A stretch of 53,668 nucleotides of DNA, from the NCBI GenBank assembly GCA_003166335.1, contig PMWA01000062.1, forward strand, positions 1 through 53,668, read 5' to 3'. The notes beneath the pieces were generated by a model. That model was not told where the DNA came from. It was given only the letters and a program-made list of their open reading frames with translations, and searched no databases. Of the stretch, positions 2,947 through 28,272 are shown piece after piece. This DNA comes from Methanobacterium sp. (GTDB taxonomy: Archaea; Methanobacteriota; Methanobacteria; Methanobacteriales; Methanobacteriaceae). A program made the translations under genes and the position numbers. Each line of letters opens with the position of its first letter. Positions within the stretch are counted from its first letter, which is position 1.

Positions 2947-3138
2947 TTTTCGACCCCCCTTGATCATATAACATCATAAATAATGTAGTATTCATCAAGA
3001 TAAATATTTTATGATAAATATACATAAATATTCTTATAATAATAAAAATTTAATATAAGCATTCATTGGGTTAATGTCGGTTTAAATCTTATAACTTAAA
3101 AAAAGTCATTTAATTTTTTTATTATAAATAAATTCGTC

Positions 3139-5776: not shown

Positions 5777-7258
5777 TTATAAAACTTCAATTAGCCCATT
5801 CTCTTCAAGTAGTTTCTGAACATTCTGCTCCAATAAACTCTGTTTCTGCTTCTTTCGAGGAGTTAAACTAGCCTGCTGAACTCCCTCTCTACATAATTCA
5901 TTTTTCATCGCATCATTAATTGACTGTTTAATTGGTGTAGCGGGCTGTGAAGGACTTGTAAGTAAATTCGCAGGTGACATCTTATCTAATAACCAGGGTT
6001 GATCACCAACACCGAGACCTTCAAAATCTTCTGGATAAGGGTCATCACCTCTTGCAGTCCTAATTTCATTCCATGTCCTACTACCATTCTCCCAAGCCTG
6101 AGTATCTAATTCCCCTTGTCTGACTTGATCAGTTTTAGTTAAATTTCTAAATCCAAGAATTGTATCCTCAATACCTGCAAATTCAAGTAAACGGAAATTC
6201 AAGTGAGAAAGAATCATATTCATATTATTGTTAAGGGTGTCATTCATCATGTCATCTTGATTCTCACCCTCACCATTACCAATAGATCCTCCATTTCCAA
6301 ATCCTATTTTACTTTGAGGAACATGGTAAGCTGCTTTAACCGCGTCTATGATGTTTTGGGTGATAGATGGTGTAAGCATATCACTGTTAGTGCTGCTTAA
6401 CAATTCATAAGTAGCACCGAAAATAGCTATATTCCCGTTCTTTCCCTCTTCCTCTAATGATTTTATCTGTCTACCTACCCTATCTACTTCTTTCTTCGCT
6501 ATCTCATAAGGAATTGTTTTATCAAAACTAAGAACTCCCTTGAGCATGTCACTAGTGAAATATCGGAGGTTATGCTCTACAACCGCCTCATCAAGCATTA
6601 AATGATTGAATAAACCAACCAATGGTGTTAATCCTTTAGAATCATCAAAAGGATTCGGGTCAAATATTGGTATTATGCCATTGTCTGGGAATACATAGCC
6701 ATTCTGATTTATGAAAAAGATTTTATTATTCACTTTTTTAGCTTTAATATGTGAAGGTGCAATCCTATCCAACCTTGCAGGCCATCCAAACATATTATAA
6801 GTCACTTCAACATAGGCAGATCCACACTGTTTATAATCGGTTGCAATCATCTTAGCAAACACATTCTCGGGTTGCAATGGGTTGGGGTGGTTGATTAAGT
6901 TCTCTAAATATTCTATTTCAAGTTCATTAGGATGTTGAAGATCCTTCGCAATCCCTATAATATCAGCATTGCTTATTGGATCTGCTATTGCATTTATGGC
7001 GCTGGATATCCATACATTACTGGTGGCTAATTGTGCGCATGTGAATGGATTTAAGTTTAAGTAAGCTGTTTTAAAGTAGCTGTTTTTGTAATAACTGATG
7101 AAATCTCCTATATTCTGGAAACGCATGCCCGAAAATTCAGATAATGTGTCAAGTAAGTGTGTGGGGTCGAATGTATCAGAGTGTTGAGATGGAAATATCC
7201 TTTTTCCGGCGTTGGTGATGCTGTTTAATGCATTTCCAATGCCTTGTGTTATTTTCAT
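5777..7258 (-). CDS. Portal protein
   Basis: About 490 aa in the terL-downstream position typical of a portal. I did not identify a diagnostic motif. The start was chosen at MKITQG (GGGAG 9 nt upstream); the ORF track allows 7300. Confidence 0.55.
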   Translation of the reverse strand: MKITQGIGNALNSITNAGKRIFPSQHSDTFDPTHLLDTLSEFSGMRFQNIGDFISYYKNSYFKTAYLNLNPFTCAQLATSNVWISSAINAIADPISNADIIGIAKDLQHPNELEIEYLENLINHPNPLQPENVFAKMIATDYKQCGSAYVEVTYNMFGWPARLDRIAPSHIKAKKVNNKIFFINQNGYVFPDNGIIPIFDPNPFDDSKGLTPLVGLFNHLMLDEAVVEHNLRYFTSDMLKGVLSFDKTIPYEIAKKEVDRVGRQIKSLEEEGKNGNIAIFGATYELLSSTNSDMLTPSITQNIIDAVKAAYHVPQSKIGFGNGGSIGNGEGENQDDMMNDTLNNNMNMILSHLNFRLLEFAGIEDTILGFRNLTKTDQVRQGELDTQAWENGSRTWNEIRTARGDDPYPEDFEGLGVGDQPWLLDKMSPANLLTSPSQPATPIKQSINDAMKNELCREGVQQASLTPRKKQKQSLLEQNVQKLLEENGLIEVL

Positions 7259-7451
7259 CAATTGATATCTCCCATTATTTTTTATTGAAAGTAATTTCAA
7301 TAGCAGAATAATTTAATAAAACTAAGCACATTTCGAATGAATATTTTAGATCCAAAATGATAAAAAAATATGAATTAAATAGTTCATCAGTTTATGAAAG
7401 TTTTAAATAATATAATTAACTACTCCTGTAATAACATGGGGATGGTAACTA

Positions 7452-8669
7452 ATGATTTTAAAAAATGAAATTGTAATTCCTAGAGGGGAAAAAGAGTATT
7501 TAGAAGTTCGTGGAATAGCTGTTAAGGGCTCTGATTTTGATATTGGAAAAGACTTGGCAGAAGTAGGAATTAAAGAGTATGAGATACAATTGGATAAATA
7601 CAAAACTCCTGTTTACGGTAAAGCTAGACAGAATTATATGAAAAGAAATTTTCCAGCTCTAGCCGAAAGGGCTCGTGGAGTGGCTGATGCATTTAAACTG
7701 GATCTAAATGAAACCAATTATGATACTACTATTTTACCTTTCGATTTGGGTGATATGGCATGTTCTGCTATTTATTTCCCTGCTTCTTTAACAGAAAATA
7801 ATCATCCTTGTGTTTGCCGAAACTTGGACTGGTATGAGGAAAGTGTTACTGAATTGGGATCAGCTTTGATGGTTATAGAAGGTAAACCATCCAGAAAATC
7901 ACTTTCTAGAATAACATCTGTGGAATTTTATCCCGAAAATGGGTATAATACTGTACAATTTGGATCGCATGATCTACTTAACCCTCCCTTGGATGGAATT
8001 AATGAAAAAGGACTTTTTGTAACCATTCTCATAGATTTACAAGGATCAACAACTCCAATGCCATTTGGAGGAGCCATAGATACAGGAATGTCTTTTTCAC
8101 AACTTACAACCATGATCCTTAATAAGTGCGCAACTGTAGAAGAAGCCAAATTTGAGATCCTGCAACAAAGAGTTTATATCCCATCTAGGGCTATGCATTT
8201 CCTTATCGGAGATAAGGACGGTAATGTAACACTTTTTGAAATTGATGGGAAATCTGGTTTATACTACTTTATAGATGGAATCCCTGAGCAACCATTTATA
8301 GTAACCAATCACTCTATGCACATGTATCCAGAACCTTCCAAATTCCCTGAATATGATCCAAAGGAAGGATACAACACATTCAATCGCTGGAATCGCCTAG
8401 ATGAATACATTAAAAAACATGAAGGTGTTTTCACCAATGAAGATATGTTCGAAGCCATGAGCTTAGTTTATTCCCATTACAAGGATTCCATAGCAGCTGG
8501 AGGATCTTTCCCATTCACAGAAAGAACTATGTACACCTATGTAGCAGATATAGCTGAAAAAACCATGGAAGTCAAATTTTATAGTAAAGACGGCCCATCA
8601 GAAGATGGAAGCGAAAACCCTTCGATTATTTTCCATGATCCTGTAACTCTAGCTTTAAACTACGAGTAA
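7452..8669 (+). CDS. Ntn-hydrolase, peptidase C45 / choloylglycine-hydrolase-like, with roughly 100-aa propeptide
   Basis: Cys104 in ..[10 protein letters not shown].. is followed by CRNLDW (R-N-x-D of linear-amide Ntn hydrolases). The N-terminal region [21 protein letters not shown] is like C45 precursors, which self-cleave before Cys near residue 103. Confidence 0.6.
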
Positions 8670-9101: not shown

Positions 9102-10592
9102 CTACCACGTTCCTATTTCAACATATTCATTTGGTTCCTCTGGAATATCTAACTCACTAAAAGAACCTGAAAGAGCATCAACGAAATCTTTATGTTTATT
9201 ATTGGGGAAATCAGTGACAACTGTGATAAAACGTTTAATCGCCCCTTCTTTACTTCCATGAAAATTAGTGATGATTTCTCCAGGTGCATTCCTATAAATA
9301 TAAATTTTATTTATTTTCGCCCAACTACCAGGCGCTTCAGCCCTATATTCTTTATCACCAGATTCTATAATTCCTTCAAAATTATAACCTGGCATCATCA
9401 AAGAATATTTTTTAACTTGACCTTTGGAAGCTTGGCCAGGATCTTGAGGTATACAATATTTTGGTTTTTTACCGCCGAGTTTGACGCTTTGAATTATATT
9501 CTTAGTTACAGTATCCTCTTCTTCCCACATTTCCTCTAAATATGTGATAAATAAACGCATATCTTGTGTTAAAGCTAATCGAACCGTTGCAGTTGCAGCT
9601 CCTCTCTGTTTTATTGGCACTTGTGGGGGATATGATGTAGCTGCAAGGTCGGACCATTGTACCTCTTGAATAATATTATCTGGTAAGTAATCAACAATTT
9701 CAAAATCTTGTTGTCTGTAAAATTTACCTTCACGTTCTTTTGGGTTTCCTTGGTGAATCGCATTAAACCTATGTTCACCCATTGTATTTTTAAGACGTTC
9801 TGCTTTTGCTTTATCAACTCGTTCATGCCATATTGGTTCTCCAGGTTCACGTCCTAATATATCATTTTCTTCAGCTAGTAATGGTAAATTTAAAACCACC
9901 CAGGTATCTTCAGGTATACTTTCTCCATTTCTAAGGAGTTTTATAGCATCTTTAGCTAATATGTACGGTTCTGCATCTAATATTTGACCTGCAAGATCAC
10001 AAATATCCAATCTTTGAGCAATATAAACCATTGCTCCAGGCATACCGTCTGTTATATCCTTTTCTACTCGTTGCAATCCGATGTTAAGATACCATTCCCA
10101 TGTTCTCTCTTGATATGTGGGTGATCGGGCTTCTTCAATGTTTTTATGAGGATCATCGATAATGAAAAGGTTTGCACCTTCACCCATAATAGGACCACCA
10201 GAACCTCCGGTGACCAATCCACCTTTATGTCCTTTTATATCCCATTTATGGGAAGCTTTACTATCATCTTTTATAAGAACATCAGATAGGAACATATCAG
10301 TTCCATAATAATGTAATAGATCTCTTGTTTCACGTCCCCATTTAGCTGCAAAACCTGCACCATAACTGGTGAGTATAGCTCTTTTTTCTAAGAATGTTCC
10401 AAGATACCAAGATAAAAAATATTTACTTATTAATTCACTTTTACCATGCCTTGGAGGCATGAAAATCATTAATCGATTTAACTTACCTTGAATTAAAAAT
10501 AATAAAAATTCAATAACTATAATTAAATGTTTAAGAGGTTTCCAACGTTTCTTAGATGCCTCAATTGCATAAGTACCCACACCATAGGGCAT
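9102..10592 (-). CDS. terL: Terminase large subunit
   Basis: Walker A-like PPRHGKSE and Walker B-like LFIIDDPH, followed by a C-terminal nuclease-sized domain. The start at MPYGVG lies 1 nt after the upstream stop; the track's longer N-terminus overlaps terS. Confidence 0.85.
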   Translation of the reverse strand: MPYGVGTYAIEASKKRWKPLKHLIIVIEFLLFLIQGKLNRLMIFMPPRHGKSELISKYFLSWYLGTFLEKRAILTSYGAGFAAKWGRETRDLLHYYGTDMFLSDVLIKDDSKASHKWDIKGHKGGLVTGGSGGPIMGEGANLFIIDDPHKNIEEARSPTYQERTWEWYLNIGLQRVEKDITDGMPGAMVYIAQRLDICDLAGQILDAEPYILAKDAIKLLRNGESIPEDTWVVLNLPLLAEENDILGREPGEPIWHERVDKAKAERLKNTMGEHRFNAIHQGNPKEREGKFYRQQDFEIVDYLPDNIIQEVQWSDLAATSYPPQVPIKQRGAATATVRLALTQDMRLFITYLEEMWEEEDTVTKNIIQSVKLGGKKPKYCIPQDPGQASKGQVKKYSLMMPGYNFEGIIESGDKEYRAEAPGSWAKINKIYIYRNAPGEIITNFHGSKEGAIKRFITVVTDFPNNKHKDFVDALSGSFSELDIPEEPNEYVEIGTW

Positions 10593-10593
10593 C

Positions 10594-11160
10594 TTACGAT
10601 TCAATTTTTTCTTCTTTTTCACTGAGGACACGCAAGACACCTAATTCCTGTTCCCTAAACTCATCAGTGCCTAATAATTCTAATGTATGCTTAAACCTAT
10701 GTTCTGATCTGACTTCAGCGTCCAACTCAATCTTAGTTATATCTTCTCCTTGAGCTGTTTTAATCATGTCCTGGGCAATTTTACCACTTTCAACTGTGAA
10801 CTTCAATAATGTCACTGGGATAAATGCCTCAGCATCTAATTTTCTATTGATTATGTCTAATTGTTTTTGAGCTACTTCTAAAGCTTTACGTCCGAACTTT
10901 TCACATAATAAATCATCTTCAACTATATCATCTGCAAGTAAATCTGACTTTTTTTCTAATGATTTTTGCTCGGTCCTTGCTCGGAACTTTGCTCGTTCTC
11001 CTTTCCAATTTTCATTAGATGCTCTTTCACCTAATGTTCCAGGACTACATCCATGAATTTTACATAGTTGTTTTTGGCTTGGGAATCTTTTTGTACCATC
11101 TTCTTCTTTTATACCTTGTATATATTGTTTTTTGATTGTTTCCCATCTATATTTGGCCAT
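10594..11160 (-). CDS. Putative terminase small subunit (N-terminal HTH)
   Basis: Sits immediately upstream of terL. It has an HTH-like segment QKQLCKIHGCSPGTLGERA followed by coiled coil. Confidence 0.45.
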   Translation of the reverse strand: MAKYRWETIKKQYIQGIKEEDGTKRFPSQKQLCKIHGCSPGTLGERASNENWKGERAKFRARTEQKSLEKKSDLLADDIVEDDLLCEKFGRKALEVAQKQLDIINRKLDAEAFIPVTLLKFTVESGKIAQDMIKTAQGEDITKIELDAEVRSEHRFKHTLELLGTDEFREQELGVLRVLSEKEEKIES

Positions 11161-13903: not shown

Positions 13904-13942
13904 TTTTATACCTCCAAAGGTTTTATATTTTTGCAAAAATTT

Positions 13943-13958
13943 TTCATCAATTGATGAA
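13943..13958. promoter_or_regulatory. Perfect 16-bp palindrome TTCATCAATTGATGAA
   Basis: Lies about 40 nt upstream of the 13903 start. A related palindrome occurs at 14232-14251. Confidence 0.4.
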
Positions 13959-13984
13959 GTTGTTTTGATAATTTAATGAGAATT

Positions 13985-14024
13985 AAAAAAAAAGGTTTTT
14001 AAGGGTGAGAAAGTCCTTAAAACC
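13985..14024 (-). terminator. Stem-loop followed by a T9 run (minus strand)
   Basis: GGTTTTAAGG-loop-CCTTAAAAACC followed by nine T on the minus strand. Confidence 0.5.
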
Positions 14025-14231
14025 CATATCTACATCTGGAGTAAGGTAAAATAGTAGGTGGTTTGGGGATTTATCAGATGTAAGACTAAATATTAAAACC
14101 CCATAATGGCATGTAAACAGAGGTGATTAATCTCTCATACAGGGTTTTAAAAATGAGGAGGTGCTCTAAATGGCAGTAAAGAGCACTCACAAAGTGATCT
14201 AAGATCGGCTTTTTATTGCAGAAAAAGCTAT

Positions 14232-14251
14232 CTCATCAATGAATTGATGAG
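14232..14251. promoter_or_regulatory. Palindrome CTCATCAAT-GA-ATTGATGAG
   Basis: Shares the TCATCAAT/ATTGATGA arms with 13943-13958. Confidence 0.35.
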
Positions 14252-14403
14252 TTTAAACCTTCCCCGAAGGGAAGGAAAAATTTACACAATTACCTATTTT
14301 TAATGTAAAACAGGGTTTTTTAGTCATTTGATTATACAAATGCCAGTAAATTCTGTGAATTAATAATTTGGATGCACCCTTTTTTAAAAAGTGATGTATT
14401 AAA

Positions 14404-14446
14404 ACCGTCTCCAAATAAAACAGTTTTCCGACCATGAATTTATGAT
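14404..14446. repeat. Direct repeat, copy A, flanking the HNH-AP2 gene
   Basis: ACCGTCTCCAAATAAAACAGTTTTCCGACCATGAATTTATGAT matches copy B at 14935-14978 apart from a few mismatches and indels. Confidence 0.6.
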
Positions 14447-14448
14447 AT

Positions 14449-14937
14449 CTATAATTCACAAATCAACTTCTCACCTGTTAATTTATGGACGGCATTTTTA
14501 TAAGCTTCAAATGCTTTCTTTTCACCTTTTGGGGTTTTTTTAAAACTACCTAAATATTTATTTTTGCCCTTAATATTAATAACAGCACGAAATCCATTCT
14601 TACTGTTAACTACCCCAGGATATTTACTAAACCTTTCATCATGTCTATTCTGAGTATTCTGTCTTCTCGTTACGATTCTTAAATTACAGCGACGGTTGTC
14701 AAGTCCATCTCCATTAATATGATCACATTCTTGACCATCTGTAGCATTAGAAATGCATCTATGCATCCTATAATATGGTCTAGGTTTTTTAGAACGACTT
14801 CCATTTCTACATGCATAATATACATTATTAGAATCTTTTTTAGCAAACCATTTATATTGGTTTAAAAAATTAAAGTCTTCATCATCGACTAAAGCAATTT
14901 TATCCTGTGTTAATGAAATTTCTTTAACTATTTTACC
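14449..14937 (-). CDS. HNH endonuclease with one AP2 domain; no canonical start codon for the full-length frame
   Basis: DHINGDGLDNRRCNLRIV (HNH) and YPGV...GFRAVI..KGK.KYLGSF....EA..AY (AP2). The frame stays open upstream of the track's internal ATG at 14766 and aligns with the N-terminus of the 20526-21242 paralogue. GGT occupies the position where that paralogue has ATG. Confidence 0.6.
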   Translation of the reverse strand, partial: GKIVKEISLTQDKIALVDDEDFNFLNQYKWFAKKDSNNVYYACRNGSRSKKPRPYYRMHRCISNATDGQECDHINGDGLDNRRCNLRIVTRRQNTQNRHDERFSKYPGVVNSKNGFRAVINIKGKNKYLGSFKKTPKGEKKAFEAYKNAVHKLTGEKLICEL

Positions 14938-14978
14938 GCCTCCTAAATAAAACAGTTTCCTAACCGTGAATTTTTGAT
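14935..14978. repeat. Direct repeat, copy B, flanking the HNH-AP2 gene
   Basis: See 14404-14446. Copy B overlaps the GGAGG and the first codons of the HNH frame. Confidence 0.6.
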
Positions 14979-15092
14979 TAAAACTTTTAAAAGTTTAGGG
15001 GATAGGAAAAAAGATGTTGAGCGAGTAGTAAAAAAAAACCTATCCCCCTTATATGGTGATTCAATTGAAGAAACTCGTAAGTTCCGTCAAAG

Positions 15093-15551
15093 TCAATTCT
15101 TTTGTATAAATACTTTCTTCTGATTTTTGGGTTCAGTGTCATAGAAATTCAAATGCCAAGGATATATAATATCATTGTCAGCAGGTCCTGCGAGTACCAA
15201 TCCACAGCTTTTACAAACAGTGTTGCCATGTTTATATATTTCTTCAAATTCTGTTCCATTACAATCTGGGCAGTGGTCTTTAGTTACGAGGTAATAAGGA
15301 TTTATTATGGTTATTTTATCATAAGCTACCAGCATGGGGCTTCCATATATTTTCAATGTGCAATTAGTACAGCTTCTTATAATGCCCTTTTTAGTCATCT
15401 GTTCTTCACAATCGGGGCATTCCTTATTTAACACTTTTTTTAACCATTCATGGTTATATTTAAAGTGATGTTTAGGTTTGTTTCCAACTGTTTGCATTCC
15501 ACCATGTCCAAGGGGTGTAATGTCCCCCTTTAATTTTGATAAGCTTATCAT
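15093..15551 (-). CDS. Double zinc-ribbon protein; the C-terminal ribbon is TFIIB/TFB-type
   Basis: CPDCNGTEFEEIYKHGNTVCKSCGLVLAGP matches the TFB N-terminal ribbon pattern CP.CG......D...GE.VC..CGLV. An additional CPDC...CTNC ribbon lies upstream. Confidence 0.6.
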   Translation of the reverse strand: MISLSKLKGDITPLGHGGMQTVGNKPKHHFKYNHEWLKKVLNKECPDCEEQMTKKGIIRSCTNCTLKIYGSPMLVAYDKITIINPYYLVTKDHCPDCNGTEFEEIYKHGNTVCKSCGLVLAGPADNDIIYPWHLNFYDTEPKNQKKVFIQKN

Positions 15552-15558
15552 GAGAAAA

Positions 15559-16029
15559 CTACATCAACATTGAACTGTTCTTTACTTTCTCTGTAGGACA
15601 CAGTGGGGATAAGTATATATTGGTCTGGAATTGAGCAGCCAAGCGTGTAACAATCATAGAATAAGTGGAAAGGGTTAAATCATTCTCCCTACATACTTTA
15701 TATCTATGTATCTGGCTAGTTTTGCAATTATGATAATAACATTTCACATAAAAAGCAATAGCAATTACAATTGTCTGCCATTTACAACGCTTACATAAAT
15801 CATTCAAACTATCCAAATTTTTAATGATATGTCTAATCCTTTTTCTGTGATTCTTTATATTCAACTCCTCAGCGACATAATTAACATAATTCAACCGTTC
15901 ATATAACCTCTGCTGCTGTTTCGCATCTTCTTGAAGTTTTTTAGATTCCCCTTTTTGTGGATTTTTATATAAATTTAATAACATACCTACAGGTCTTCCC
16001 GGATCTGTATTACAATCTATCATAATCAC
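15559..16029 (-). CDS. Possible single cyclin-fold (TFB core-like) protein
   Basis: RLNYVNYVAEELNI....R.RI..II ... TIVIAIAFYVKCYYHNCKTSQIHRYKVCRENDLTLSTYSMIVTRLA resembles one TFB cyclin repeat. The similarity was judged by eye only. Confidence 0.3.
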   Translation of the reverse strand: MIMIDCNTDPGRPVGMLLNLYKNPQKGESKKLQEDAKQQQRLYERLNYVNYVAEELNIKNHRKRIRHIIKNLDSLNDLCKRCKWQTIVIAIAFYVKCYYHNCKTSQIHRYKVCRENDLTLSTYSMIVTRLAAQFQTNIYLSPLCPTEKVKNSSMLM

Positions 16030-16050
16030 CGCCCCTAAAGAAATTAGATT

Positions 16051-16731
16051 TTAACCTTCTAATGGAATAGTAATTTTTTGAACTGTACTTTCCTGATCGA
16101 TATGGAGTTTAACTAAGCTTTTCAAATGATTCGGCAATGTTTCATATAAGTCCAATAATGATTTTTGCTGAGGAAAATCAGCTTTTAAGATATTATCCTC
16201 AGGATCTATCGTTATCAAGGCAGCATTGATAAGACTTGGTAATAATTCAGTGATAAGGAGAATTTGAGTAGTAGTCTTAGGAGTATTTTCAGGATCTGCA
16301 TAAGTTCTATGGTCTGGTGTATTTGCAACTGTTTTTGGTGATTCAATAGGTCTATTTTTAGACTTAATTTCTTCAACTGGTTTTGAAATTTCTTCCGCGA
16401 CAGTTTTTCCAGGTAAAGTATAATAATTTTTATTACCATCTCTACGGACATTTAAAAGTTTATTATCAATTAGAAACGCTGTTAACTTTTGAATATAACC
16501 TACTGGCTTGTCAATCTGGCTTTTAATCAAGCTTGTAATTATTTCATCATATTCACCGAATAAAGGTTTTAATTTAACATCAAATAAATTCCTGAATTCC
16601 CTTTCCTTACACTCCATACACGTTTCCCAATTAGATTTTTTAACTCCACCACAAATCGGACATTCCTGAGGATTTAATTCTTTTCCCACATTTTCCACCT
16701 CTGAATTATTTACTTCTTTTTTATTAACCAT
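16051..16731 (-). CDS. Zinc-ribbon plus winged-helix-like DNA-binding protein
   Basis: CPICGG...CMEC, then GYIQKLTAFLIDNKLLNVRRDGNKNYYTL. The start was moved to MVNKKE to avoid overlapping the upstream ORF. Confidence 0.45.
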   Translation of the reverse strand: MVNKKEVNNSEVENVGKELNPQECPICGGVKKSNWETCMECKEREFRNLFDVKLKPLFGEYDEIITSLIKSQIDKPVGYIQKLTAFLIDNKLLNVRRDGNKNYYTLPGKTVAEEISKPVEEIKSKNRPIESPKTVANTPDHRTYADPENTPKTTTQILLITELLPSLINAALITIDPEDNILKADFPQQKSLLDLYETLPNHLKSLVKLHIDQESTVQKITIPLEG

Positions 16732-16756
16732 TGACTTGATTATATTCCTATTCTTT

Positions 16757-17014
16757 TTACTTTCCAAAAAATGAAGTCCATCTCGCGCCAATATTAACAC
16801 TTCCCTTAGTATAACCCCTTACAGCTAAAATCCAGAATATAATATATAAAAAAACAAGATTCCATGAATTTGATAAATAAGTCTGCAATATAATTAATGG
16901 ATTGCTGCAACACCACACTAAAAAACCTGCTTTATTACCTTCAGCTATCCAATAAGCACCTAAAAGAGATAAAAAAGACGCAAACCAAAATAAAAATAAA
17001 CTAAAATTAATCAT
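16757..17014 (-). CDS. Small 3-TM membrane protein
   Basis: Three hydrophobic segments in 85 aa. Confidence 0.45.
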   Translation of the reverse strand: MINFSLFLFWFASFLSLLGAYWIAEGNKAGFLVWCCSNPLIILQTYLSNSWNLVFLYIIFWILAVRGYTKGSVNIGARWTSFFGK

Positions 17015-17214
17015 TCAACAACCTCAATTTTAATTCCTGCATTATCAAATTTTTTTAAAACATTTTCCCATTTATTAGTAGCTCCTGTAAAACTCCAATC
17101 ATGCTTAAATTCCTTATACTGCTTTTTAGTTAATTGAACTGTATAAAAAAACTCCACTTCACCATTACGAGTTCGTGTACCTGTTAAAACAGTTCCCTTA
17201 TCCATAATATTCAT
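17011..17214 (-). CDS. Hypothetical protein
   Basis: Compact ORF whose stop overlaps the next start by 4 nt. Confidence 0.4.
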   Translation of the reverse strand: MNIMDKGTVLTGTRTRNGEVEFFYTVQLTKKQYKEFKHDWSFTGATNKWENVLKKFDNAGIKIEVVE

Positions 17215-17328
17215 TTAAACCAACCTCTCTAAACCGGAATCATGCAATAGATTAGGATCATAAAAACTCATATACGTGTAAAACTCTTCAAAATTAAATA
17301 AGTCATTGCAATCTTTTGATTCAATCAT

Positions 17329-17616
17329 TTAACCCACCATCTCTAAATCCTCATTCAACCTATATGATATTTCCAGCAACACATCTAAACAATGTTTACA
17401 GAAAAAAGCTCCTTCAATGAGCTTCCAACGGTTAACCCAGTCATCACACGTGCATCTCCAATAAGCAGTTATACAAGTGACAAATTCAGTATCTCCCTTA
17501 CTATTTTTAACTTCAGCCTGGACCATTGTATCATCAAAAAAGAGAATAGTAACTGTACCTTTCCGTTGGTACAGATCATAACCAGCTTTGATTCTTGTAT
17601 TCTTAGGATAACTCAT
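17329..17616 (-). CDS. SWIM-type zinc-finger protein
   Basis: CTCDDW...(16 aa)...CKHC fits the SWIM pattern C-x-C-x(n)-C-x-H. Confidence 0.6.
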   Translation of the reverse strand: MSYPKNTRIKAGYDLYQRKGTVTILFFDDTMVQAEVKNSKGDTEFVTCITAYWRCTCDDWVNRWKLIEGAFFCKHCLDVLLEISYRLNEDLEMVG

Positions 17617-17618
17617 TC

Positions 17619-17969
17619 TTAGTCTTCAACTCTAGATATTCCAACTTCAAGATCATCATTTTCTTCATTCAGCTTATCTTCCACCTTCTTTAAATCCTCA
17701 TCATTGAGTATAAAACGGTCTAAAGAAGCTCCACCATTGATTTTTTCTTCGATTAATTCCAGTTCAGCATTCACATCTGCTAGGCTACATTCAGTTTTAT
17801 TAAGCTCTTTTTCAACATCTTCACACATTGGAGAACCTGCATACTTTGAATGTTCCAACAATGTTAAACGAAAACCTAATTCAGATTTTTTACTTTGTAA
17901 ATTATCTCGTTTCTTTTGAAGTTTCTGATAAACACCTACTAAAACTTCAGCCATATTCTTATAAACCAT
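17619..17969 (-). CDS. Coiled-coil hypothetical protein
   Basis: Charged and heptad-like throughout. Confidence 0.4.
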   Translation of the reverse strand: MVYKNMAEVLVGVYQKLQKKRDNLQSKKSELGFRLTLLEHSKYAGSPMCEDVEKELNKTECSLADVNAELELIEEKINGGASLDRFILNDEDLKKVEDKLNEENDDLEVGISRVED

Positions 17970-18599
17970 TTAATCAATCTCCTTAGCTCGTTTAATTTCA
18001 CCGGCTTTATGCATCCTCATTAACTCGAATTTAACCCTGGTCATATCCTCACTATTCTCATCAAAATCAGGATCAGATTTAATATACACAATAACAGCTT
18101 CGCAGGTAATCACCAAATGCTGGTCTTTCATGACTTCAATATAATGATCTATTGTGTTACGTGCCTCTCTGTCTTCAGCTGTTTTCATTTCTGAATTATG
18201 AGGTTTATTATTCTCATTAAACTCTACAGGATATAATTTCAAATATAATGGATCCTTTTTACTGATTTCCGCATAAACATCATATTTTTTGAACGCTTTA
18301 TGCATAGGGTCGCTGGCAGGTTTCTCACCCTGGTAAATTATTTTAATCTTATAACCAGTTGGTATGTCATCCATAGCACTGTTCAAACCGGTAGTACCGA
18401 AAACAGTAACAACTCCATCAACAGCTATAGGGTGATCACATTCAATACAATACTTCCAGTTATCCCTTCCACGGAACGGACTTAAAACTCTTCTTAAATA
18501 GATTCCTTCTAACTGATCACCTATAGATTCACCTTTCCAAACACCAGATTTGCTCGGAACTTTAACCCATTCTTTTTTCTCAGTTTTTGCTTCAGTCAT
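17970..18599 (-). CDS. Conserved viral protein of unknown function (paralogue at 38005-38622)
   Basis: Alignable over its full length with the second copy. Shared motifs include GD..EG.YL.R, FRG, KYC.E..HP, V.V.G..GLN..M.DIP.G.K.KI.Y.G, SDPD and GEIK. Confidence 0.6.
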   Translation of the reverse strand: MTEAKTEKKEWVKVPSKSGVWKGESIGDQLEGIYLRRVLSPFRGRDNWKYCIECDHPIAVDGVVTVFGTTGLNSAMDDIPTGYKIKIIYQGEKPASDPMHKAFKKYDVYAEISKKDPLYLKLYPVEFNENNKPHNSEMKTAEDREARNTIDHYIEVMKDQHLVITCEAVIVYIKSDPDFDENSEDMTRVKFELMRMHKAGEIKRAKEID

Positions 18600-18953
18600 T
18601 TATTCCACCAGCCCTAACTCTTTTGGAGATTTCCATCCTTTATCTTCATTTTTAATAGCCATCTCTTCAGCTTCCTTTTTTTCCTCAATATCATTCTTAA
18701 TCATTTGCAGCCGGTAGTTTTGGACAGTTTTATCAATATGCTCCACAATCTCACTATCGATCCGAATTTTCTCTAAAACCAAACCTGCAAGGTAAGTATC
18801 CTCTGCAAATATTTTCTGCTCATCCCTGGAGAGCTTATCAGTGTACTCTATAACTTTTTTACTATCACCCCAAGTCCTCTTAGCTTTCCCTAAAACAGCT
18901 ACTAAGGATAAGCCACTGCCATCTAATTCTTTTTTAATTTCTTCATTATTCAA
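18600..18953 (-). CDS. Hypothetical protein
   Basis: Abuts the neighbouring ORF with no gap. Confidence 0.4.
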   Translation of the reverse strand: MNNEEIKKELDGSGLSLVAVLGKAKRTWGDSKKVIEYTDKLSRDEQKIFAEDTYLAGLVLEKIRIDSEIVEHIDKTVQNYRLQMIKNDIEEKKEAEEMAIKNEDKGWKSPKELGLVE

Positions 18954-18988
18954 CTAAATCACCTGCTTTTTTTCTCTCATAAAAATTT

Positions 18989-19279
18989 CTATGAGCGTGC
19001 AACCCGTTTACTAGGCGGAACCGTAGATAATAACTCCTCTTCAGTTTTCGATGCAACCTTTTTCAAAGGTCTCTGAGGATAAAAATTATTAGGATCAGCT
19101 TTCCAATCAGCATAATAACCCAAACCTAACTCCAAAGGATCCAATTCACAACTACACTCAACCGCTTTAAGTCCTCTTTCAGATTCGTTTTCTTCATAAG
19201 TCCAATACCACTGACTTATCACACCATCATTACAGTGGGGACATGATTTAAAAATCGGTTTAGCCATAGGAGAACTCAT
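18989..19279 (-). CDS. Hypothetical Cys-containing protein
   Basis: CPHC ... CSC pattern. Confidence 0.4.
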   Translation of the reverse strand: MSSPMAKPIFKSCPHCNDGVISQWYWTYEENESERGLKAVECSCELDPLELGLGYYADWKADPNNFYPQRPLKKVASKTEEELLSTVPPSKRVARS

Positions 19280-19429
19280 TAAATCACCTTAATAAATAAT
19301 AAATAAATTAATAATAAAAATATAATAATTAATAATATAATATATAATAATAGATACGAAGGTAGATCCGGATTTCGTGTATTCAATGTATTTCGTGTAC
19401 ATGAAATACATAAAAAATTAAGTTCAAAT
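19280..19429. promoter_or_regulatory. AT-rich intergenic region with iteron-like repeats (ori or operator candidate)
   Basis: About 60 nt of almost pure A/T is followed by ATTTCGTGTA twice (19372 and 19390, 18 bp apart). A palindrome GTATTTC-N8-GAAATAC lies at 19388-19409, and ACGAA..TTCGT arms are present. Confidence 0.35.
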
Positions 19430-19864
19430 TTAAATGAGGCTATCATATTTACTCCTCCCTTGAACAGTGTGTAAATGATGTTTAAGAATTTTATCACCCA
19501 TAGAATCAGGAATAGCACTTTTTAACTCCGAGAAACTAATATCTTGAACTGTAGCTATTTCTTCAATTCTATCCAAACCAATACTACCATCATTATCTAT
19601 AATTTTTAAAACAGTGTTTAATGCAAATGTTAATTTGTTTATATCTTCACCCTTCAATTCATCTTCAACAGACATTAAACCTATTTCTCGGTCATATTCT
19701 TTCATTAATTCCTGTTTTTTCATATCTAGTTCATCAATTTCCATTTTGATAATTTCTGCTCGATTACTGGTTGCTATTTTTCTTCTAAGATAATCTTCAT
19801 AGTCCTTAGTACGGTCAGGAATTAACGTTTTAGATTTCTTATAAAGGTCAAAATCAATGTTCAT
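19430..19864 (-). CDS. Hypothetical protein
   Basis: 144-aa ORF; AAGGAGG lies upstream, about 30 nt from the ATG, which is long for a ribosome-binding site. Confidence 0.45.
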   Translation of the reverse strand: MNIDFDLYKKSKTLIPDRTKDYEDYLRRKIATSNRAEIIKMEIDELDMKKQELMKEYDREIGLMSVEDELKGEDINKLTFALNTVLKIIDNDGSIGLDRIEEIATVQDISFSELKSAIPDSMGDKILKHHLHTVQGRSKYDSLI

Positions 19865-19940
19865 GTGAATTCCTTTACTATTTTGTCTTGTTTTTTTCCG
19901 TCCCGTTTCAATACCTCCTTAATTTTTAATTAAAATATAA

Positions 19941-20010
19941 GCCAGTAGGGAATCGAACCCCCGTTTCTCGGTTACAGGCCGAGCACATCACCAAACTATG
20001 TTATACAGGC
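19941..20010 (-). tRNA. tRNA-like element, non-canonical (anticodon position reads TGT)
   Basis: Has a D arm ACAT/ATGT with GG in the loop, an anticodon stem CTCGG/CCGAG and a T loop TTCGATT. The T stem has only 3 clean bp, the acceptor stem has a T-T mismatch, and position 33 is C. It is either a pseudogene or affected by homopolymer miscalls. Confidence 0.35.
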
Positions 20011-20023
20011 AATGAATTTAGGA

Positions 20024-20340: not shown

Positions 20341-20538
20341 TTAACCACCTCCAATACTTGCGAGTGTCATTAATTCAAAGCTCCAGATTATGATCGCAGC
20401 CCACATAACAATTAATAATGCTAAAATGATAATTGCAGGTCTGGCTGTGAAATAATCATAAGCTTGGATGTAAGGATCTTTCTGGCGTGGTCTGAGTAAA
20501 TCTGCTCGTCTTCGTGTTCGTTCACTCATTTCAAACAT
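20341..20538 (-). CDS. Small membrane protein
   Basis: Hydrophobic segment IIILALLIVMWAAIIIW. Confidence 0.4.
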   Translation of the reverse strand: MFEMSERTRRRADLLRPRQKDPYIQAYDYFTARPAIIILALLIVMWAAIIIWSFELMTLASIGGG

Positions 20539-21242
20539 CTCCTCATAGATTTAATTACATCAGAATCTAAAATTCCAATATACCTTTCTTGAATTATTTC
20601 ACTAATTTTCACAGCTTTTTTAATATAAGCTAATGAAGCAGCTTCTTCTGACTTAAAATAACCCAGATTTTTACTTTTTTTATTAATCGTGATATGAACC
20701 TGCCATTTTTGAACATTCTTATTCCAACTAACCCCCTTAAATCGACTTGTGAAATTGGGTTTTTTAATAATAACCTTTTCCCCATTTATAAGGGCATTAT
20801 ATGCATTTTGATATTCTGCTTGGGCTTCTTTCGATGTGTTAAAACGTCCTAACCAATATTTCTTATTATCATATTGAACTTGAGAAATCCACTTTCCTGT
20901 TTGTTTACAAAAACAAACACCAGGATATTGACTGCTTCGTGGATGGTGCCTATTTTGACCATTTTCATTACCCGTAACAATTCTAAGATTTTCCCTTCGA
21001 TTATCCAACCCATTTCCATTAATATGATCGACTTGTTTCAATTTATGCGGATTTAAAATAAGTCTATGTAACAGAATATGCCCATTTCCATACCTTTTAC
21101 GGGCATATTTTAAATTATCAGGTCGTTTACGGTCATGGTGTAAATGCCATTTCTGGTTTTTAATTTTTTCATAATCTTCTGCATCGATTAAAGTGAAGTC
21201 TAGGCCGTTACTCAAAGGAAAAAAATATGTAACATTTTTCAT
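20526..21242 (-). CDS. HNH endonuclease with two AP2 domains (homing-endonuclease-like)
   Basis: DHINGNGLDNRRENLRIV plus two YPGV/FKGV...W.....K...LG.F...EA..AY modules. Confidence 0.8.
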   Translation of the reverse strand: MKNVTYFFPLSNGLDFTLIDAEDYEKIKNQKWHLHHDRKRPDNLKYARKRYGNGHILLHRLILNPHKLKQVDHINGNGLDNRRENLRIVTGNENGQNRHHPRSSQYPGVCFCKQTGKWISQVQYDNKKYWLGRFNTSKEAQAEYQNAYNALINGEKVIIKKPNFTSRFKGVSWNKNVQKWQVHITINKKSKNLGYFKSEEAASLAYIKKAVKISEIIQERYIGILDSDVIKSMRRCLK

Positions 21243-24653: not shown

Positions 24654-25787
24654 TTATTTTCGTTTCTCATCTTCCCTATGTGCTTTAAGTATTTTATTTT
24701 CTCTTTCAAGTTTATTCATCCTTTCCTCAAGCTTCTTAACTTTTTCGTCAGTGAGATCATGAACTTCTACTTTACCATAAATCGTTACTTCATCCATATT
24801 TCGATAGTAACGTTTCTTTAAATCTTCGTAGTCATCTTTTAAATATCGTTGTCCAGTGTCATCCTGAATCTCATGACCCATCAAAATCCGTGTTTCAAGA
24901 TAACCAAGGTCTGTTTTTTTTAATTGATTTCCAAACCATTTTCTTAAATTATGTGGTCTGAAATATATATACCCATTTGCACTAATAGGGAACTGGCATA
25001 TTCCATTCAAACGCCTGAAATATACATTTACAGTTAATTTATGCATCTCCCTATCTTTTGGGTTTCGGAATAAAAAAGTATCTTCTTCCGGTTTTTTTGG
25101 TGGTTGATGGTGTAAGTATGCTAATATATAATCCAAGCTCTCAGGTGTTGAAAAACATGTGTGAAATTGCCTATTTTTCTGCATCTGGTAGTGCCAGGTG
25201 AGAGGTCCTATTTGTTCTGGGACTTTTTGGATTACATGATCCATATCAGTTAATTCATTTACATCGATTTTAATATATTCACTTATACAATCGACAAAAT
25301 TTTTTAACCTTAAATTTCTACAATCACCCTGCCTCATCCCACTACTGGCCATTAAAATAATCATAGCTTGATATTTTACATTCGCAAAGCTTAACGCCCT
25401 TTTAATATCATCTATGTTAGGGAGGTCTATTAACTCTTCATGAACTGCTGTTTTTAGGGGTCTTCGCTGGTATGGTGGTAATTCTATTGAATTCAAAGTG
25501 TAAAATGCCCTTATGATTTTGATTGAATTCTTGATGTGAAGTTCTGAATATTTTTGGTCTTCAAGGTAGAGTTCAAAGTCATCCAAGTGGTCATTTATAC
25601 TTCTACGTTTAAGACGTATCCTGTTTTCTTCTTCGTCATCAGCTTCTTTAATAGCTTCTGTTGGTGTTAAGCCAGTTGCTTTATAATATTTTTGGAAATG
25701 ATAAATATATATCCGTTGCGTTGATTCTACAACATGTCTTTTACGGAAATATTTTAATAACAATGGATCCTTATCTATATTATTCAC
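24654..25787 (-). CDS. int: Tyrosine recombinase / phage integrase
   Basis: ASSGMRQGD (catalytic R), HNLRKWF (H..R) and LMGH......QRY (H and nucleophile Y) in the C-terminal domain, with an N-terminal SAM-like domain. Confidence 0.85.
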   Translation of the reverse strand: MNNIDKDPLLLKYFRKRHVVESTQRIYIYHFQKYYKATGLTPTEAIKEADDEEENRIRLKRRSINDHLDDFELYLEDQKYSELHIKNSIKIIRAFYTLNSIELPPYQRRPLKTAVHEELIDLPNIDDIKRALSFANVKYQAMIILMASSGMRQGDCRNLRLKNFVDCISEYIKIDVNELTDMDHVIQKVPEQIGPLTWHYQMQKNRQFHTCFSTPESLDYILAYLHHQPPKKPEEDTFLFRNPKDREMHKLTVNVYFRRLNGICQFPISANGYIYFRPHNLRKWFGNQLKKTDLGYLETRILMGHEIQDDTGQRYLKDDYEDLKKRYYRNMDEVTIYGKVEVHDLTDEKVKKLEERMNKLERENKILKAHREDEKRK

Positions 25788-25917: not shown

Positions 25918-26719
<802 letters not shown>

Positions 26720-26823
26720 AAAATTTTTTAACCTTACCTTTTTTTTAAATTGATTATAAAATTATAAAAAAAAATAAATAATAAAAAGAAATATCCCATA
26801 ATTTATTTGTTTAAGTATTTATT

Positions 26824-26897
26824 GCCTCGGTGGCTTAGTCCGGTATAGCGCGGGATTCGTAATCCTGAGGTCGCGGGTTCAATTCCCGCCCGAGGCT
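26824..26897 (+). tRNA. tRNA-Thr (anticodon CGT)
   Basis: Acceptor GCCTCGG/CCGAGGC, D arm GCTT..AGC, anticodon arm CGGGA-TTCGTAA-TCCTG, T arm GCGGG-TTCAATT-CCCGC. No encoded CCA. Confidence 0.9.
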
Positions 26898-26946
26898 TCA
26901 AAAATAAGTAATTTTTATGTTTTCAAACATGATTTTTAGTGAATTA

Positions 26947-27102
26947 TTATTCCATCTCCCTTATCTCATCCACCACAAATTTACCACCACAACTACACTC
27001 CTCGATTAAATCTCCAAGTTCATAGGGTGGAAGATCACTTTCCACTTCAAAGATTCGCTCCTCATCACAAGTATCACATCTAGCTATTATAAACCAGTCC
27101 AT
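26947..27102 (-). CDS. Small Cys-containing protein (51 aa)
   Basis: Hand-translated, with GGAGG upstream; CDTC ... CSC. Confidence 0.35.
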   Translation of the reverse strand: MDWFIIARCDTCDEERIFEVESDLPPYELGDLIEECSCGGKFVVDEIREME

Positions 27103-27177
27103 TTAAAAATCCTCCATTATTTCTAAATTCACAAAAAAAATTCTATCTTATCATGTACGTATTAATCATATAAATTT

Positions 27178-28272
27178 TTAAATCTTAGATGGATGGATGA
27201 AACCACTCCTCAGAAGATGATCCACCAACACCATAGCCACCGACGCCTCTGCAACGGCAGTGACCCGAGGGCAGATGCAGGGGTCGTGCCGTCCCATTAT
27301 TCGAATTTCAACATCCTTACTACTATTTAAATCAACAGTTTCCTGAACTTGTGAAATAGAAGGGGTTGGTTTAACTGCTATTCTAACTACAATAGGCATT
27401 CCATTTGATATACCACCTAATATTCCACCCGACTGATTTGTGATGGTTTTTATTTTCCCATTTTTTGTAACATAGTATTCATCATTATTCTGATATCCAG
27501 TTATATGGGCAACTTCAAATCCTGCCCCAATCTCAACTCCCTTCACAGATCCAATAGCCATCATGGATTTAGCCAGATCAGCGTCCAATTTATCAAATAC
27601 AGGCTCACCTAATCCCACTGGCGGATTAATAACCAATGTTTCCACAATTCCGCCGATGGAGTCGCCTTTAGACTTAAGTTTGATAATTAACTCCTCCATT
27701 TTACGTGCGGCTTGAGGATCGGCACATTTAACAGGATTATCCTCAATTTTAGACTCAATATGATTAATATCCACTTTATCTGCTTTTATATCTCCAATTT
27801 GAGTAACATGGGATATTACTTTGATCTCTAATAATTCAAGAAGCTTCTTGGCAACTGCACCGCCTATAACATGGCCGATGGTAACTCTACCACTTCCTCG
27901 ACCACCTCCAAGGTAATCATAATTACCGTACTTGGTTTTCCAAGTGTAATCTCCATGCCCTGGACGGGGGATGTTTTTAAGTGCTTCGTAAGTAGATGAA
28001 TCAAATTCACGATTGTAAACCACTGCCGCAATAGGTGTACCGTCTGTTTTGTCCTGAAATAATCCGGATAATATTTGAACTTTATCTTTTTCACTGCGAG
28101 AAGTGGTAATTTTGCTGGTACCGGGTCTTCTCTTGTCAAGTTCTTTTTGTATATTTTCTACACTCAACTTAATTCCTGCGGGACAGCCGTCAATTACAGC
28201 TCCCAGAGCCACACCGTGACTGGAGCCGAAGGTGGTAACTTTGAAAATATTACCGGTGGTATTTCCTGACAT
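27178..28272 (-). CDS. aroC: Chorismate synthase
   Basis: [27 protein letters not shown] at the N-terminus, with family-typical length and motifs. Confidence 0.9.

Follow-up and report, generated by a model that had tools for sequence, protein, structure and literature searches.

Within a 53,668-nt stretch of Methanobacterium sp. DNA (assembly GCA_003166335.1, contig PMWA01000062.1; hereafter the window, meaning that stretch in its full length), an integrated tailed virus carries two small adjacent genes, here named ORF-B and ORF-A, that very probably encode a ribbon-plus-cyclin module like that of the archaeal basal transcription factor B (TFB/TFIIB). A split, order-swapped TFB-like architecture had been proposed for this locus from the DNA alone (below, the original prediction), and it is borne out by a Pfam match, by fold searches in two structure libraries, by relatives that are fused in the canonical order, and by synteny across diverged lineages. 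With a single repeat, two chains and a swapped order, the pair does not qualify as TFB proper, yet in its parts it is clearly TFB-derived or TFB-like. As to function, ORF-B and ORF-A may well form a two-subunit transcription factor, derived from TFB and encoded by the virus, that redirects the host RNA polymerase (RNAP), probably to late promoters. Source records list the proteins of the pair as hypothetical or carry the wrong annotation ‘ribosomal protein S27AE’. The features of the pair, with confidence values (pLDDT) taken from AlphaFold2 (AF2) models, are as follows.

15559..16023, minus strand: ORF-B, 154 aa, standalone cyclin-like protein, first gene of the pair
15943..16011, minus strand: conserved N-terminal segment of ORF-B, residues 5-27 (DPGRPxxxLLxLYKxPQKGE), from family alignments
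15625..15918, minus strand: cyclin-like five-helix domain of ORF-B, residues ~36-133, putative counterpart of the N-terminal cyclin repeat of TFB
15093..15551, minus strand: ORF-A, 152 aa, two zinc domains, second gene of the pair
15312..15467, minus strand: N-terminal folded domain of ORF-A, residues 29-80 (AF2 pLDDT 84-88)
15192..15272, minus strand: TFB/TFIIB-type B-ribbon of ORF-A, residues 94-120 (CPDC...CKSCGLVL), Pfam PF08271
15153..15161, minus strand: P131-W132-H133 motif of ORF-A, 16 residues past the last ribbon cysteine

Both open reading frames lie on the minus strand in the order originally proposed, with 7 nt between the stop of ORF-B and the start of ORF-A. Only the start of ORF-B needs adjusting: it had been placed at 16029, an upstream GTG that would give a protein of 156 aa, and gene callers use the ATG at 16023.

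Domains of ORF-A and ORF-B

The ribbon that had been picked out in ORF-A (peptide CPDCNGTEFEEIYKHGNTVCKSCGLVLAGP, residues 94-123) is a TFB/TFIIB ribbon in both its sequence and its predicted fold. Residues 94-120 match the Pfam TFIIB zinc-binding family PF08271 at 34.9 bits against a cutoff of 29 bits (E 1.1e-8), with the match ending at model position 29 of 43; every other zinc-ribbon model in Pfam scores under its own cutoff. The ribbon also matches positions 13-43 of the NCBIfam TFIIB model PRK00423. A profile search yielded 16 more family members of 133-163 aa; the family alignment comprises 17 sequences of this size besides ORF-A, and PF08271 is matched by 15 of the 17 members scanned. 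The best PDB match of the family profile is the N-terminal domain of Pyrococcus furiosus (Pfu) TFB (1pft, E 1.6e-6), which scores about 10 bits above the ribbons of the ribosomal proteins eS27 and eL43. The AF2 model of ORF-A (overall pLDDT 62) contains two folded modules, and its tails, residues 1-26 and 133-152, are predicted to be disordered. In this model, residues 92-122 form a three-stranded ribbon (pLDDT 73-78) that Foldseek places on the B-ribbons of Brf1, TFIIB and Pfu TFB with root-mean-square deviations (rmsd) of 1.0-1.6 Å over ~32 residues and 32-41% identity, the local match to the Brf1 ribbon having 41% identity and an rmsd of 1.0 Å.

Past the ribbon, ORF-A has just 32 residues, predicted to be disordered and without a cyclin core, as the original prediction had stated. 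Its further statement that the B-reader and linker are missing as well is mostly right, with a reservation that concerns a conserved segment following the ribbon (G122-P123 ... Y130-P131-W132-H133). Within the family, H133 is invariant, P131 is conserved in at least 90% of the members, and a few have F in place of W132. HMMER aligns the ‘YPW’ of ORF-A to the ‘SEW’ of human TFIIB, and the last ribbon cysteine is separated from the tryptophan by 16 residues in ORF-A and by 15 in Pfu TFB (C29 to W44). Judged by this alignment and spacing, the PWH motif may be a remnant of the start of the B-reader (‘P/S-E-W-R’ in TFB/TFIIB), possibly with an equivalent function.

The PWH motif had escaped the original prediction, as had the N-terminal zinc domain of ORF-A (residues 29-80). 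This domain consists of a helix (EWLKKVL), two knuckles (C45-x2-C48 and C61-x2-C64) and an IYGNPxLVAY motif. Invariant in the family are C45, P46, C48, C61, I68, Y69, G70 and P72, and the fourth zinc ligand is often His in relatives. When compared on its own to PDB sequences, the domain gave no significant match, and found no TFS. We consider it a candidate docking surface for ORF-B or a candidate second contact with RNAP.

ORF-B has six close homologs, and a profile search of 1.84 billion representatives retrieved 80 clusters at E<1e-3, of which 22 also pass E<1e-10. Almost all clusters are standalone proteins of 120-160 aa. No family match was found in Pfam, in NCBIfam or among the function-bearing PHROGs, and neither a single-sequence search nor an 84-sequence profile gave anything meaningful against PDB sequences. 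The AF2 model of ORF-B is all-helical (pLDDT 89, predicted template modeling score 0.76), with five helices at residues 28-53, 57-69, 82-98, 102-113 and 118-133 that have cyclin-like lengths and spacing; the bundle is entered by way of a long helix at the N-terminus. When this model was compared to the PDB with Foldseek, the top 13 matches were all TFIIB core or Brf2 structures (probability 0.63-0.96, template modeling (TM) score 0.43-0.47, ~100 residues; best E 0.49), and Pyrococcus woesei TFB (1ais_B) ranked 19th. Cyclins C, A and D appear lower in the Foldseek lists, behind TFIIB/Brf, and matches to helix-turn-helix (HTH), sigma and DnaA-C folds have probabilities of at most 0.2. Among the viral models of BFVD, the top named matches include the TFIIB proteins of Pithovirus (probability 0.99) and Orpheovirus (0.96) and the putative TFB of rudivirus SSRV1 (0.84). 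A fold comparison of both models to TFB/TFIIB had been proposed as the check on the original prediction, and its outcome agrees with that prediction for ORF-A and ORF-B alike.

We therefore regard ORF-B as a five-helix cyclin-like repeat at the level of the predicted fold only. The cyclin repeat that had been called in it by eye, and with less assurance than the ribbon, stands at this level and through the fused homologs described below, and is marginal by sequence alone. In the sequence comparison, hhalign mapped ORF-B residues 36-97 onto Pfu TFB residues 105-165, and in a column-shuffle null against the TFB core, 1 of 250 shuffles scored at or above the real ORF-B. Residues 5-27 lie opposite TFB residues ~84-100 with low per-column confidence, and are a possible counterpart of the B-linker ‘RKWQ / SKYQ’ region of TFB. 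The TFB alignment, scanned against viral contigs, gave no matches. We also observed that R4TKY1, an uncharacterised 200-aa protein of Halogranum tailed virus 1, is among the best BFVD neighbours of ORF-B (probability 0.85, TM 0.46); judging by its predicted structure, it may be another unrecognised TFB-cyclin-like viral protein.

Fused relatives, pairing and genomic slot

The two halves of the module are joined in a single chain in two relatives, P0044 (231 aa) and P0056 (242 aa). In each, an N-terminal TFB-type ribbon is connected by a linker of 80 aa to an ORF-B domain, which is the canonical order of TFB. P0044 is encoded on a 59-kb viral contig (lineages of related loci are denoted here by L numbers; this one is L014), on which a profile scan found no separate ORF-A near the fused gene. 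Its residues 16-196 are collinear with positions 9-179 of the 312 positions of PRK00423 (E 5e-4). The family alignment including the fusions is likewise collinear with Pfu TFB and human TFIIB (hhalign probability 91.9%, E 6.8e-7), in a register that places ribbon on ribbon, the ORF-B leader on the B-linker region, and the ORF-B helices on helices 1-3 of the first cyclin repeat. When the ribbon columns were removed, this register was unchanged and the support went down to P 0.005-0.02. Another rearranged relative, P0022 (283 aa), has two tandem ORF-B domains. In P0050 and P0055, an ORF-B domain stands in frame behind an HNH or GIY-YIG-like nuclease domain; these are either real fusions or homing-endonuclease insertions that gene callers read through.

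To count how often the two genes occur together, we ran profile scans on all related loci retrieved. ORF-B followed by ORF-A, adjacent and on the same strand, was found in seven diverged lineages: the window, L001, L013/L032, L017, L019, L021 and L036. The proteins of L001 are 60-64% identical to those of the window, and the lowest identity is that of ORF-B in L017 (33%), where the ORF-A copy is partial and interrupted by a stop. Scanning metagenomes with the ORF-A alignment added just one new lineage.

The position of the module is conserved as well. In the five lineages that have terminase or portal genes in view, it lies upstream of them, be it as the pair, in fused form or as ORF-A alone. 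ORF-B is carried by four of these (the window, L021/L022, L036 and, in fused form, L014), and the fifth, L035, has ORF-A alone. In the window, the pair is followed by an HNH gene, small genes, a gene of the size of a small terminase subunit (TerS), the large terminase subunit (TerL) and the portal; in L021/L022 the order is integrase, ERF, ORF-B, ORF-A, three small genes, TerL and Portal_Mu; in L036, the pair, further genes, TerL and portal; in L014, the fused gene, further genes and portal; and in L035, the ORF-A homolog, three genes, a TerL-sized gene (the terminase being assigned by size) and a Mu-F-like protein. The module is thus separated from the packaging genes by three genes at the least (L021/L022, L035) and by more than five at the most. 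Since terminase and portal types vary between these lineages, the slot appears to be kept independently of the structural genes. Homing-endonuclease genes adjoin the module recurrently (HNH genes lie downstream of it in the window, and upstream in L015 and L019), a pattern that is typical of conserved, important viral genes.

Two observations concern individual lineages. In L035, a 145-aa protein encoded at 738-1175, two genes upstream of the ORF-A homolog, has a PF08271 ribbon of its own (E 9e-6) along with additional zinc knuckles; it seems that TFB-ribbon modules are shuffled in these viruses. In L001, a PCNA-like sliding clamp (1921-2700) and a Dam methylase share an operon with the pair.

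Proposed function, rival explanations and known systems

In TFB/TFIIB, RNAP is recruited through the B-ribbon, which docks on its dock/clamp, and the B-reader and B-linker work within the cleft. Of the two cyclin repeats, the first is seated on TBP-DNA and on the wall of RNAP, and the second reads the B recognition element (BRE). The pair may well act on host RNAP as a transcription initiation factor or a late-gene activating factor. In the scheme that we favor, ORF-B and ORF-A would be the last two genes of an early/middle operon. The ORF-A ribbon would dock on the RNAP dock/clamp, and ORF-B, as the equivalent of the first cyclin repeat, would sit on TBP-DNA and the polymerase wall, to which it may add a B-linker-like leader. 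The two proteins would associate into a heterodimer, with the N-terminal domain of ORF-A as the likely interface, and would connect the host RNAP to TBP at the promoter, or to a viral promoter element, replacing or competing with host TFB. In this way the pair would activate the genes for packaging, structure and lysis that lie downstream, as an archaeal counterpart of the sigma-like activators of phage late genes. The extra zinc domain of ORF-A could also serve as a second RNAP anchor. The original prediction had envisaged a free ribbon that either blocks host TFB or redirects the polymerase. The ribbon is not free: it is part of a protein of two domains, which in nearly all cases has a cyclin-like partner, and this pairing, together with the slot upstream of the packaging genes, leads us to favor redirection or activation over simple blocking. 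The strongest version of this idea, in which the pair is a true two-subunit TFB replacement that assembles host RNAP on BRE-independent viral late promoters with the help of TBP or a viral DNA element, we regard as possible, albeit doubtful.

Several observations weigh against these readings. The cyclin homology of ORF-B is marginal and unproven by sequence: the Pfam cyclin-repeat family of TFIIB, PF00382, is neither in the Pfam table of ORF-B nor among the 25 most-matched families of the 84 members (E<=0.1), and against a thin, two-sequence TFB profile, the ORF-B domain alone aligned by hhalign at P 0.005-0.02 to the first cyclin repeat and at P 0.035 to the second. All Foldseek E-values of ORF-B against the PDB and BFVD exceed 0.1, so the argument from the fold rests on the consistency of the hit list, with no single match to carry it. 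The second, BRE-reading cyclin repeat is absent, so that a true substitute for TFB would have to draw its promoter specificity from elsewhere. That a TFB gene simply split in two is made less likely by the swapped order of the genes. In ORF-A, CxC replaces CxxC in the second knuckle in many relatives, and L035 has an ORF-A homolog without an adjoining ORF-B. Finally, the slot upstream of the packaging genes also houses methylases, HNH and other non-regulatory genes, which makes it weak evidence for a late activator.

Because the ribbon of host TFB uses the same dock, the viral ribbon must compete with it, and inhibition is therefore the main rival. The pair would then be an RNAP inhibitor or decoy, with the ORF-A ribbon on the dock and ORF-B on the TFB site of TBP-DNA but without initiation, with the effect of shutting off host transcription or restraining the provirus, akin to RIP/ORF145 of ATV or cellular TFS4. 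The module indeed lacks the full B-reader, the B-linker and the second cyclin repeat that are needed for productive initiation, and from established structural knowledge the TFB of Methanobacteriales is expected at the same dock, which makes competition unavoidable. In addition, the two-ribbon layout of ORF-A brings up TFS4, an RNAP inhibitor, as its top Foldseek match, along with a weak NCBIfam TFS4 match, and viral and host inhibitors of archaeal RNAP are documented (PMC5123050, PMC8448823, PMC5715097). Yet a decoy has no need for a conserved cyclin-like partner, nor for fused relatives that are collinear with TFB; the virus is temperate and can express its late genes only through host RNAP; and the resemblance to TFS4 is weak (rmsd 10 Å, TM 0.17-0.27; hmmsearch E 0.78), with no TFIIS_C or RpoM Pfam match in the 17 members. 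We consider an RNAP inhibitor or decoy unlikely as the explanation of the pair, noting that redirection and inhibition of host transcription are not mutually exclusive.

We believe it to be somewhat less likely again that the proteins merely resemble TFB modules and form a DNA-acting repressor or activator that does not dock on RNAP. Zinc ribbons do cross-match many families (eS27, eL43 and PaaD among them), ORF-B belongs to no assigned sequence family and resembles TFB only weakly at the profile level, and archaeal viruses encode many zinc-finger and HTH regulators (‘ZF’ genes in PMC11375127; bioRxiv 10.1101/2021.07.29.453957). Such a regulator does not account for a ribbon that scores above the curated TFIIB threshold and has TFB as its best PDB match, ~10 bits over the ribosomal ribbons, for a TFIIB family that tops both fold searches while HTH, sigma and DnaA-C stay at probabilities of at most 0.2, or for a fused homolog that follows a TFIIB model over both the ribbon and the first cyclin repeat. 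Least probable by a wide measure, in our view, is that ORF-A is a two-ribbon factor of TFS/Rpb9 type acting in the RNAP secondary channel, with ORF-B as an unrelated accessory. This would fit the top Foldseek matches of full-length ORF-A, which are TFS4 (7oqy_Y, E 6.9e-3), Rpb9 and A12.2, and the alignment of positions 2-38 of the NCBIfam TFS4 model (NF047723) with ORF-A residues 43-79 (E 1.1e-4). Those structural matches, at rmsd 10-19 Å and TM <0.3, amount to just two tandem ribbons, the second ribbon is TFIIB-type according to Pfam, NCBIfam and the PDB profile search, and the N-terminal domain alone finds no TFS in the PDB. Membership of ORF-A in the TFS4/Rpb9 family was itself rejected (NF047723 reaches 22.6 bits against a 120-bit cutoff, with rmsd 10-19 Å), and neither PF02150 (RpoM-type/RNA_POL_M_15KD) nor PF01096 (TFIIS_C) was found in ORF-A at E<=10 or in the 17 relatives at E<=0.01.

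If the pair is instead read as a TFB-like factor that redirects RNAP, it can be set beside several known systems. With TFB/TFIIB itself it shares the PF08271 ribbon in ORF-A, the cyclin-like repeat in ORF-B, and a W-containing motif at the position of the B-reader. It differs in being split over two polypeptides, the gene for the cyclin-like part preceding that for the ribbon; in having one cyclin repeat (~100 residues, TM 0.46) rather than two, with no PF00382 match seen; in largely missing the B-reader and B-linker; in the extra N-terminal zinc domain of ORF-A; and in being virus-encoded. The best functional precedent for a partial TFB is TFB3 of Sulfolobales, a truncated TFB paralog without the C-terminal HTH, which requires its zinc ribbon and acts as a promoter-bound activator (PMC6101594); as an activator of the DNA-damage response, it works at promoters together with the basal factors rather than as a standalone TFB (PMC6101594, PMC6101591). 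The likeness, an intact zinc ribbon in a partial TFB without the C-terminal HTH, is one of functional precedent only: TFB3 is cellular, forms a single chain with a coiled-coil C-terminus, and co-occurs with a TFB1 of degenerate ribbon.

Among viruses, TFB homologs have been reported in the Italian rudiviruses SSRV1, MRV1 and ARV3 (bioRxiv 10.1101/2020.01.16.907410) and in Asgard wyrdviruses and mobile genetic elements (bioRxiv 10.1101/2021.07.29.453957), and BFVD entries show that giant viruses encode TFIIB. The pair resembles these homologs in being virus-borne and a presumed recruiter or retargeter of the transcription machinery; unlike the split pair, the viral TFB/TFIIB neighbours in BFVD are single chains of 186-317 aa. 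The MSTV1 paper lists only ‘ZF’ proteins (PMC11375127). In the literature that we searched, no TFB-like module is described in tailed viruses of methanogens, and no viral TFB is described as split or as reduced to one cyclin repeat.

Small viral substitutes for parts of initiation factors are familiar from bacteriophages. The late factor of T4 is split into two proteins, gp55 and gp33, each replacing one sigma module, and activators of the RinA/ArpU type are encoded just upstream of terS. The pair is similar in kind and likewise lies at an early/late boundary beside packaging genes; these phage factors differ in acting with bacterial RNAP and sigma and share no homology with it, so that the analogy is one of mechanism and position only. 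Small proteins that bind archaeal RNAP directly and are linked to virus infection are known in TFS4 and RIP (ORF145) (PMC5715097, PMC5123050, PMC8448823). TFS4 is also zinc-ribbon-based, and ORF-A has a two-ribbon layout with weak TFS4 matches. The differences are that the ribbons of TFS4 are TFIIS-type and enter the secondary channel, and that RIP occupies the DNA channel, whereas the second ribbon of ORF-A is TFIIB-type and comes with a cyclin-like partner.

To our knowledge, the timing of expression and the takeover of RNAP in archaeal viruses are largely unknown, with few regulators and two RNAP inhibitors characterised, and we know of no study of the TFB homologs of rudiviruses and Asgard viruses. 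The module described here is small, conserved and modular, and is found in tailed viruses of Methanobacteriales, among whose members are methanogens of the gut and the rumen. Since defined systems for in vitro transcription are available for related hosts, the idea is directly testable. If the pair does redirect RNAP, the substitution of basal factors, which is the strategy of phage sigma factors, would also have evolved in archaeal/eukaryotic-type transcription, the minimal parts of TFB for RNAP recruitment would be defined, and a function would be assigned to ~80 clusters of ‘hypothetical proteins’. Should it be a true two-subunit TFB replacement, it would be the archaeal equivalent of the split late sigma of T4 and the first known case of a virus that reprograms archaeal promoter specificity by basal-factor substitution.

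The provirus and the surroundings of the pair

The viral origin that had been proposed for the pair is confirmed by its location in a provirus with integrase, TerL and portal genes, and by a near-identical stretch on an IMG/VR viral contig. The further features of the locus are as follows.

24654..25787, minus strand: tyrosine integrase (Pfam Phage_integrase), at the right edge of the provirus
16051..16800, minus strand: gene upstream of the pair, 226-249 aa, with a CxxC...CxxC ribbon
14998..15048, minus strand: hairpin GGGGGATAGG ... CCTATCCCC around a T9 run, read from the sequence
14449..14766, minus strand: HNH homing-endonuclease gene (Pfam HNH_3; PHROG 99, E 5e-24), directly downstream of the pair
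9102..10640, minus strand: TerL (PHROG 38, E 3.4e-50), packaging/late module downstream of the pair
5777..7300, minus strand: portal protein (Pfam Phage_portal, E 3.2e-27)

The window is a piece of chromosome (~32% GC) into which the virus is integrated; the provirus spans ~1-25800 and runs off the left end of the window. To the right of the integrase, from ~25940-27178 onward, lie host genes (chorismate synthase, pyruvate:ferredoxin oxidoreductase, ALAD, CitG and PheRS-alpha), and to its left follows a long run of small genes, including one for an HNH-AP2 protein (20526-21242). At the protein level (tblastn), ORF-A and ORF-B are 99-100% identical to the stretch of the IMG/VR contig (L012/L033), and a 325-kb metagenome contig carries the same provirus with the same host flank. 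A related ORF-B/ORF-A pair is found in a metagenome-assembled genome labelled uncultured Methanobacteriaceae (L001 lineage). We take the carrier to be a temperate tailed virus of a Methanobacteriaceae-type methanogen. By TerL, the nearest deposited virus is Methanobacterium virus Drs3, at 34% identity; a profile scan of its first 16 kb, through TerL, found no ORF-B homolog, and the ORF-A profile gave only a non-specific 14-bit zinc-ribbon match. Among 50,697 phage records, neither Megablast with 14000-20000 nor tblastn with ORF-A or ORF-B found a match.

Upstream of the pair, the gene at 16051-16800 has a weak PHROG match as its sole one (‘DNA binding protein’, E 0.008). Its stop is separated from the start of ORF-B by a gap of 27 nt, which leaves no space for a separate promoter, and the three genes are probably co-transcribed. 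The hairpin at 14998-15048 has a 10-bp G/C stem and begins ~45 nt past the stop of ORF-A, and the RNA fold of 14960-15095 has a z of -2.5. Archaeal transcription is known to terminate at oligo-T tracts, and the hairpin with its T9 run probably marks the end of the early/middle operon.

The open frame of the HNH gene that follows extends upstream to ~14949, with no ATG, GTG or TTG before 14766. The gene is bracketed by a 34-nt direct repeat (14413-14446 and 14945-14978, 85% identical, 532 nt apart), as if a homing-endonuclease gene had inserted there and duplicated its target. Between the HNH gene and the next gene, ~500 nt (13937-14448, minus strand) contain several G/C-rich hairpins in an AT-rich genome. 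No gene is called here in near-identical contigs, and the stretch holds just a 68-aa mechanical open reading frame. It ends in a palindrome (TTCATCAATTGATGAA) and in TTTTTGCAAAAATATAAAA, right before a Shine-Dalgarno sequence, and its promoter-proximal block is recognisably kept in the L001 lineage (L001 10460-10870). We consider the stretch a candidate late promoter/operator, cos region or noncoding RNA. It gave no Rfam match, the Rfam scan of the whole window returning only two tRNAs, and a multi-lineage alignment downstream of ORF-A was uninformative on any shared late-promoter motif.

The first of these tRNAs is a tRNA-Thr(TGT) in the provirus (19939-20011, minus strand), and the second a host tRNA-Thr(CGT) (26824-26897, plus strand), ~1 kb past the integrase, which may be the attachment site. 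Between the integrase and this tRNA lies a gene of metallo-beta-lactamase fold (25940-26719, plus strand), for the product of which precomputed PF23023 (Anti-Pycsar Apyc1) matches exist in identical contigs; the gene could encode a viral anti-defence nuclease, located at the provirus edge, or be an ordinary metallo-beta-lactamase gene of the host. On the opposite strand to its neighbours, between TerL and portal, a gene for an N-terminal-nucleophile hydrolase of the AAT/CBAH family is found (7452-8669, plus strand); an ‘NTN-hydrolase’ is also annotated in the genome maps of MSTV1-like usuviruses (PMC11375127). At 1939-2967 (minus strand), 72/78-nt tandem DNA repeats give rise to a 342-aa protein with Chlamydia-PMP-type repeats, a probable adhesin-like decoration of the virion or tail.

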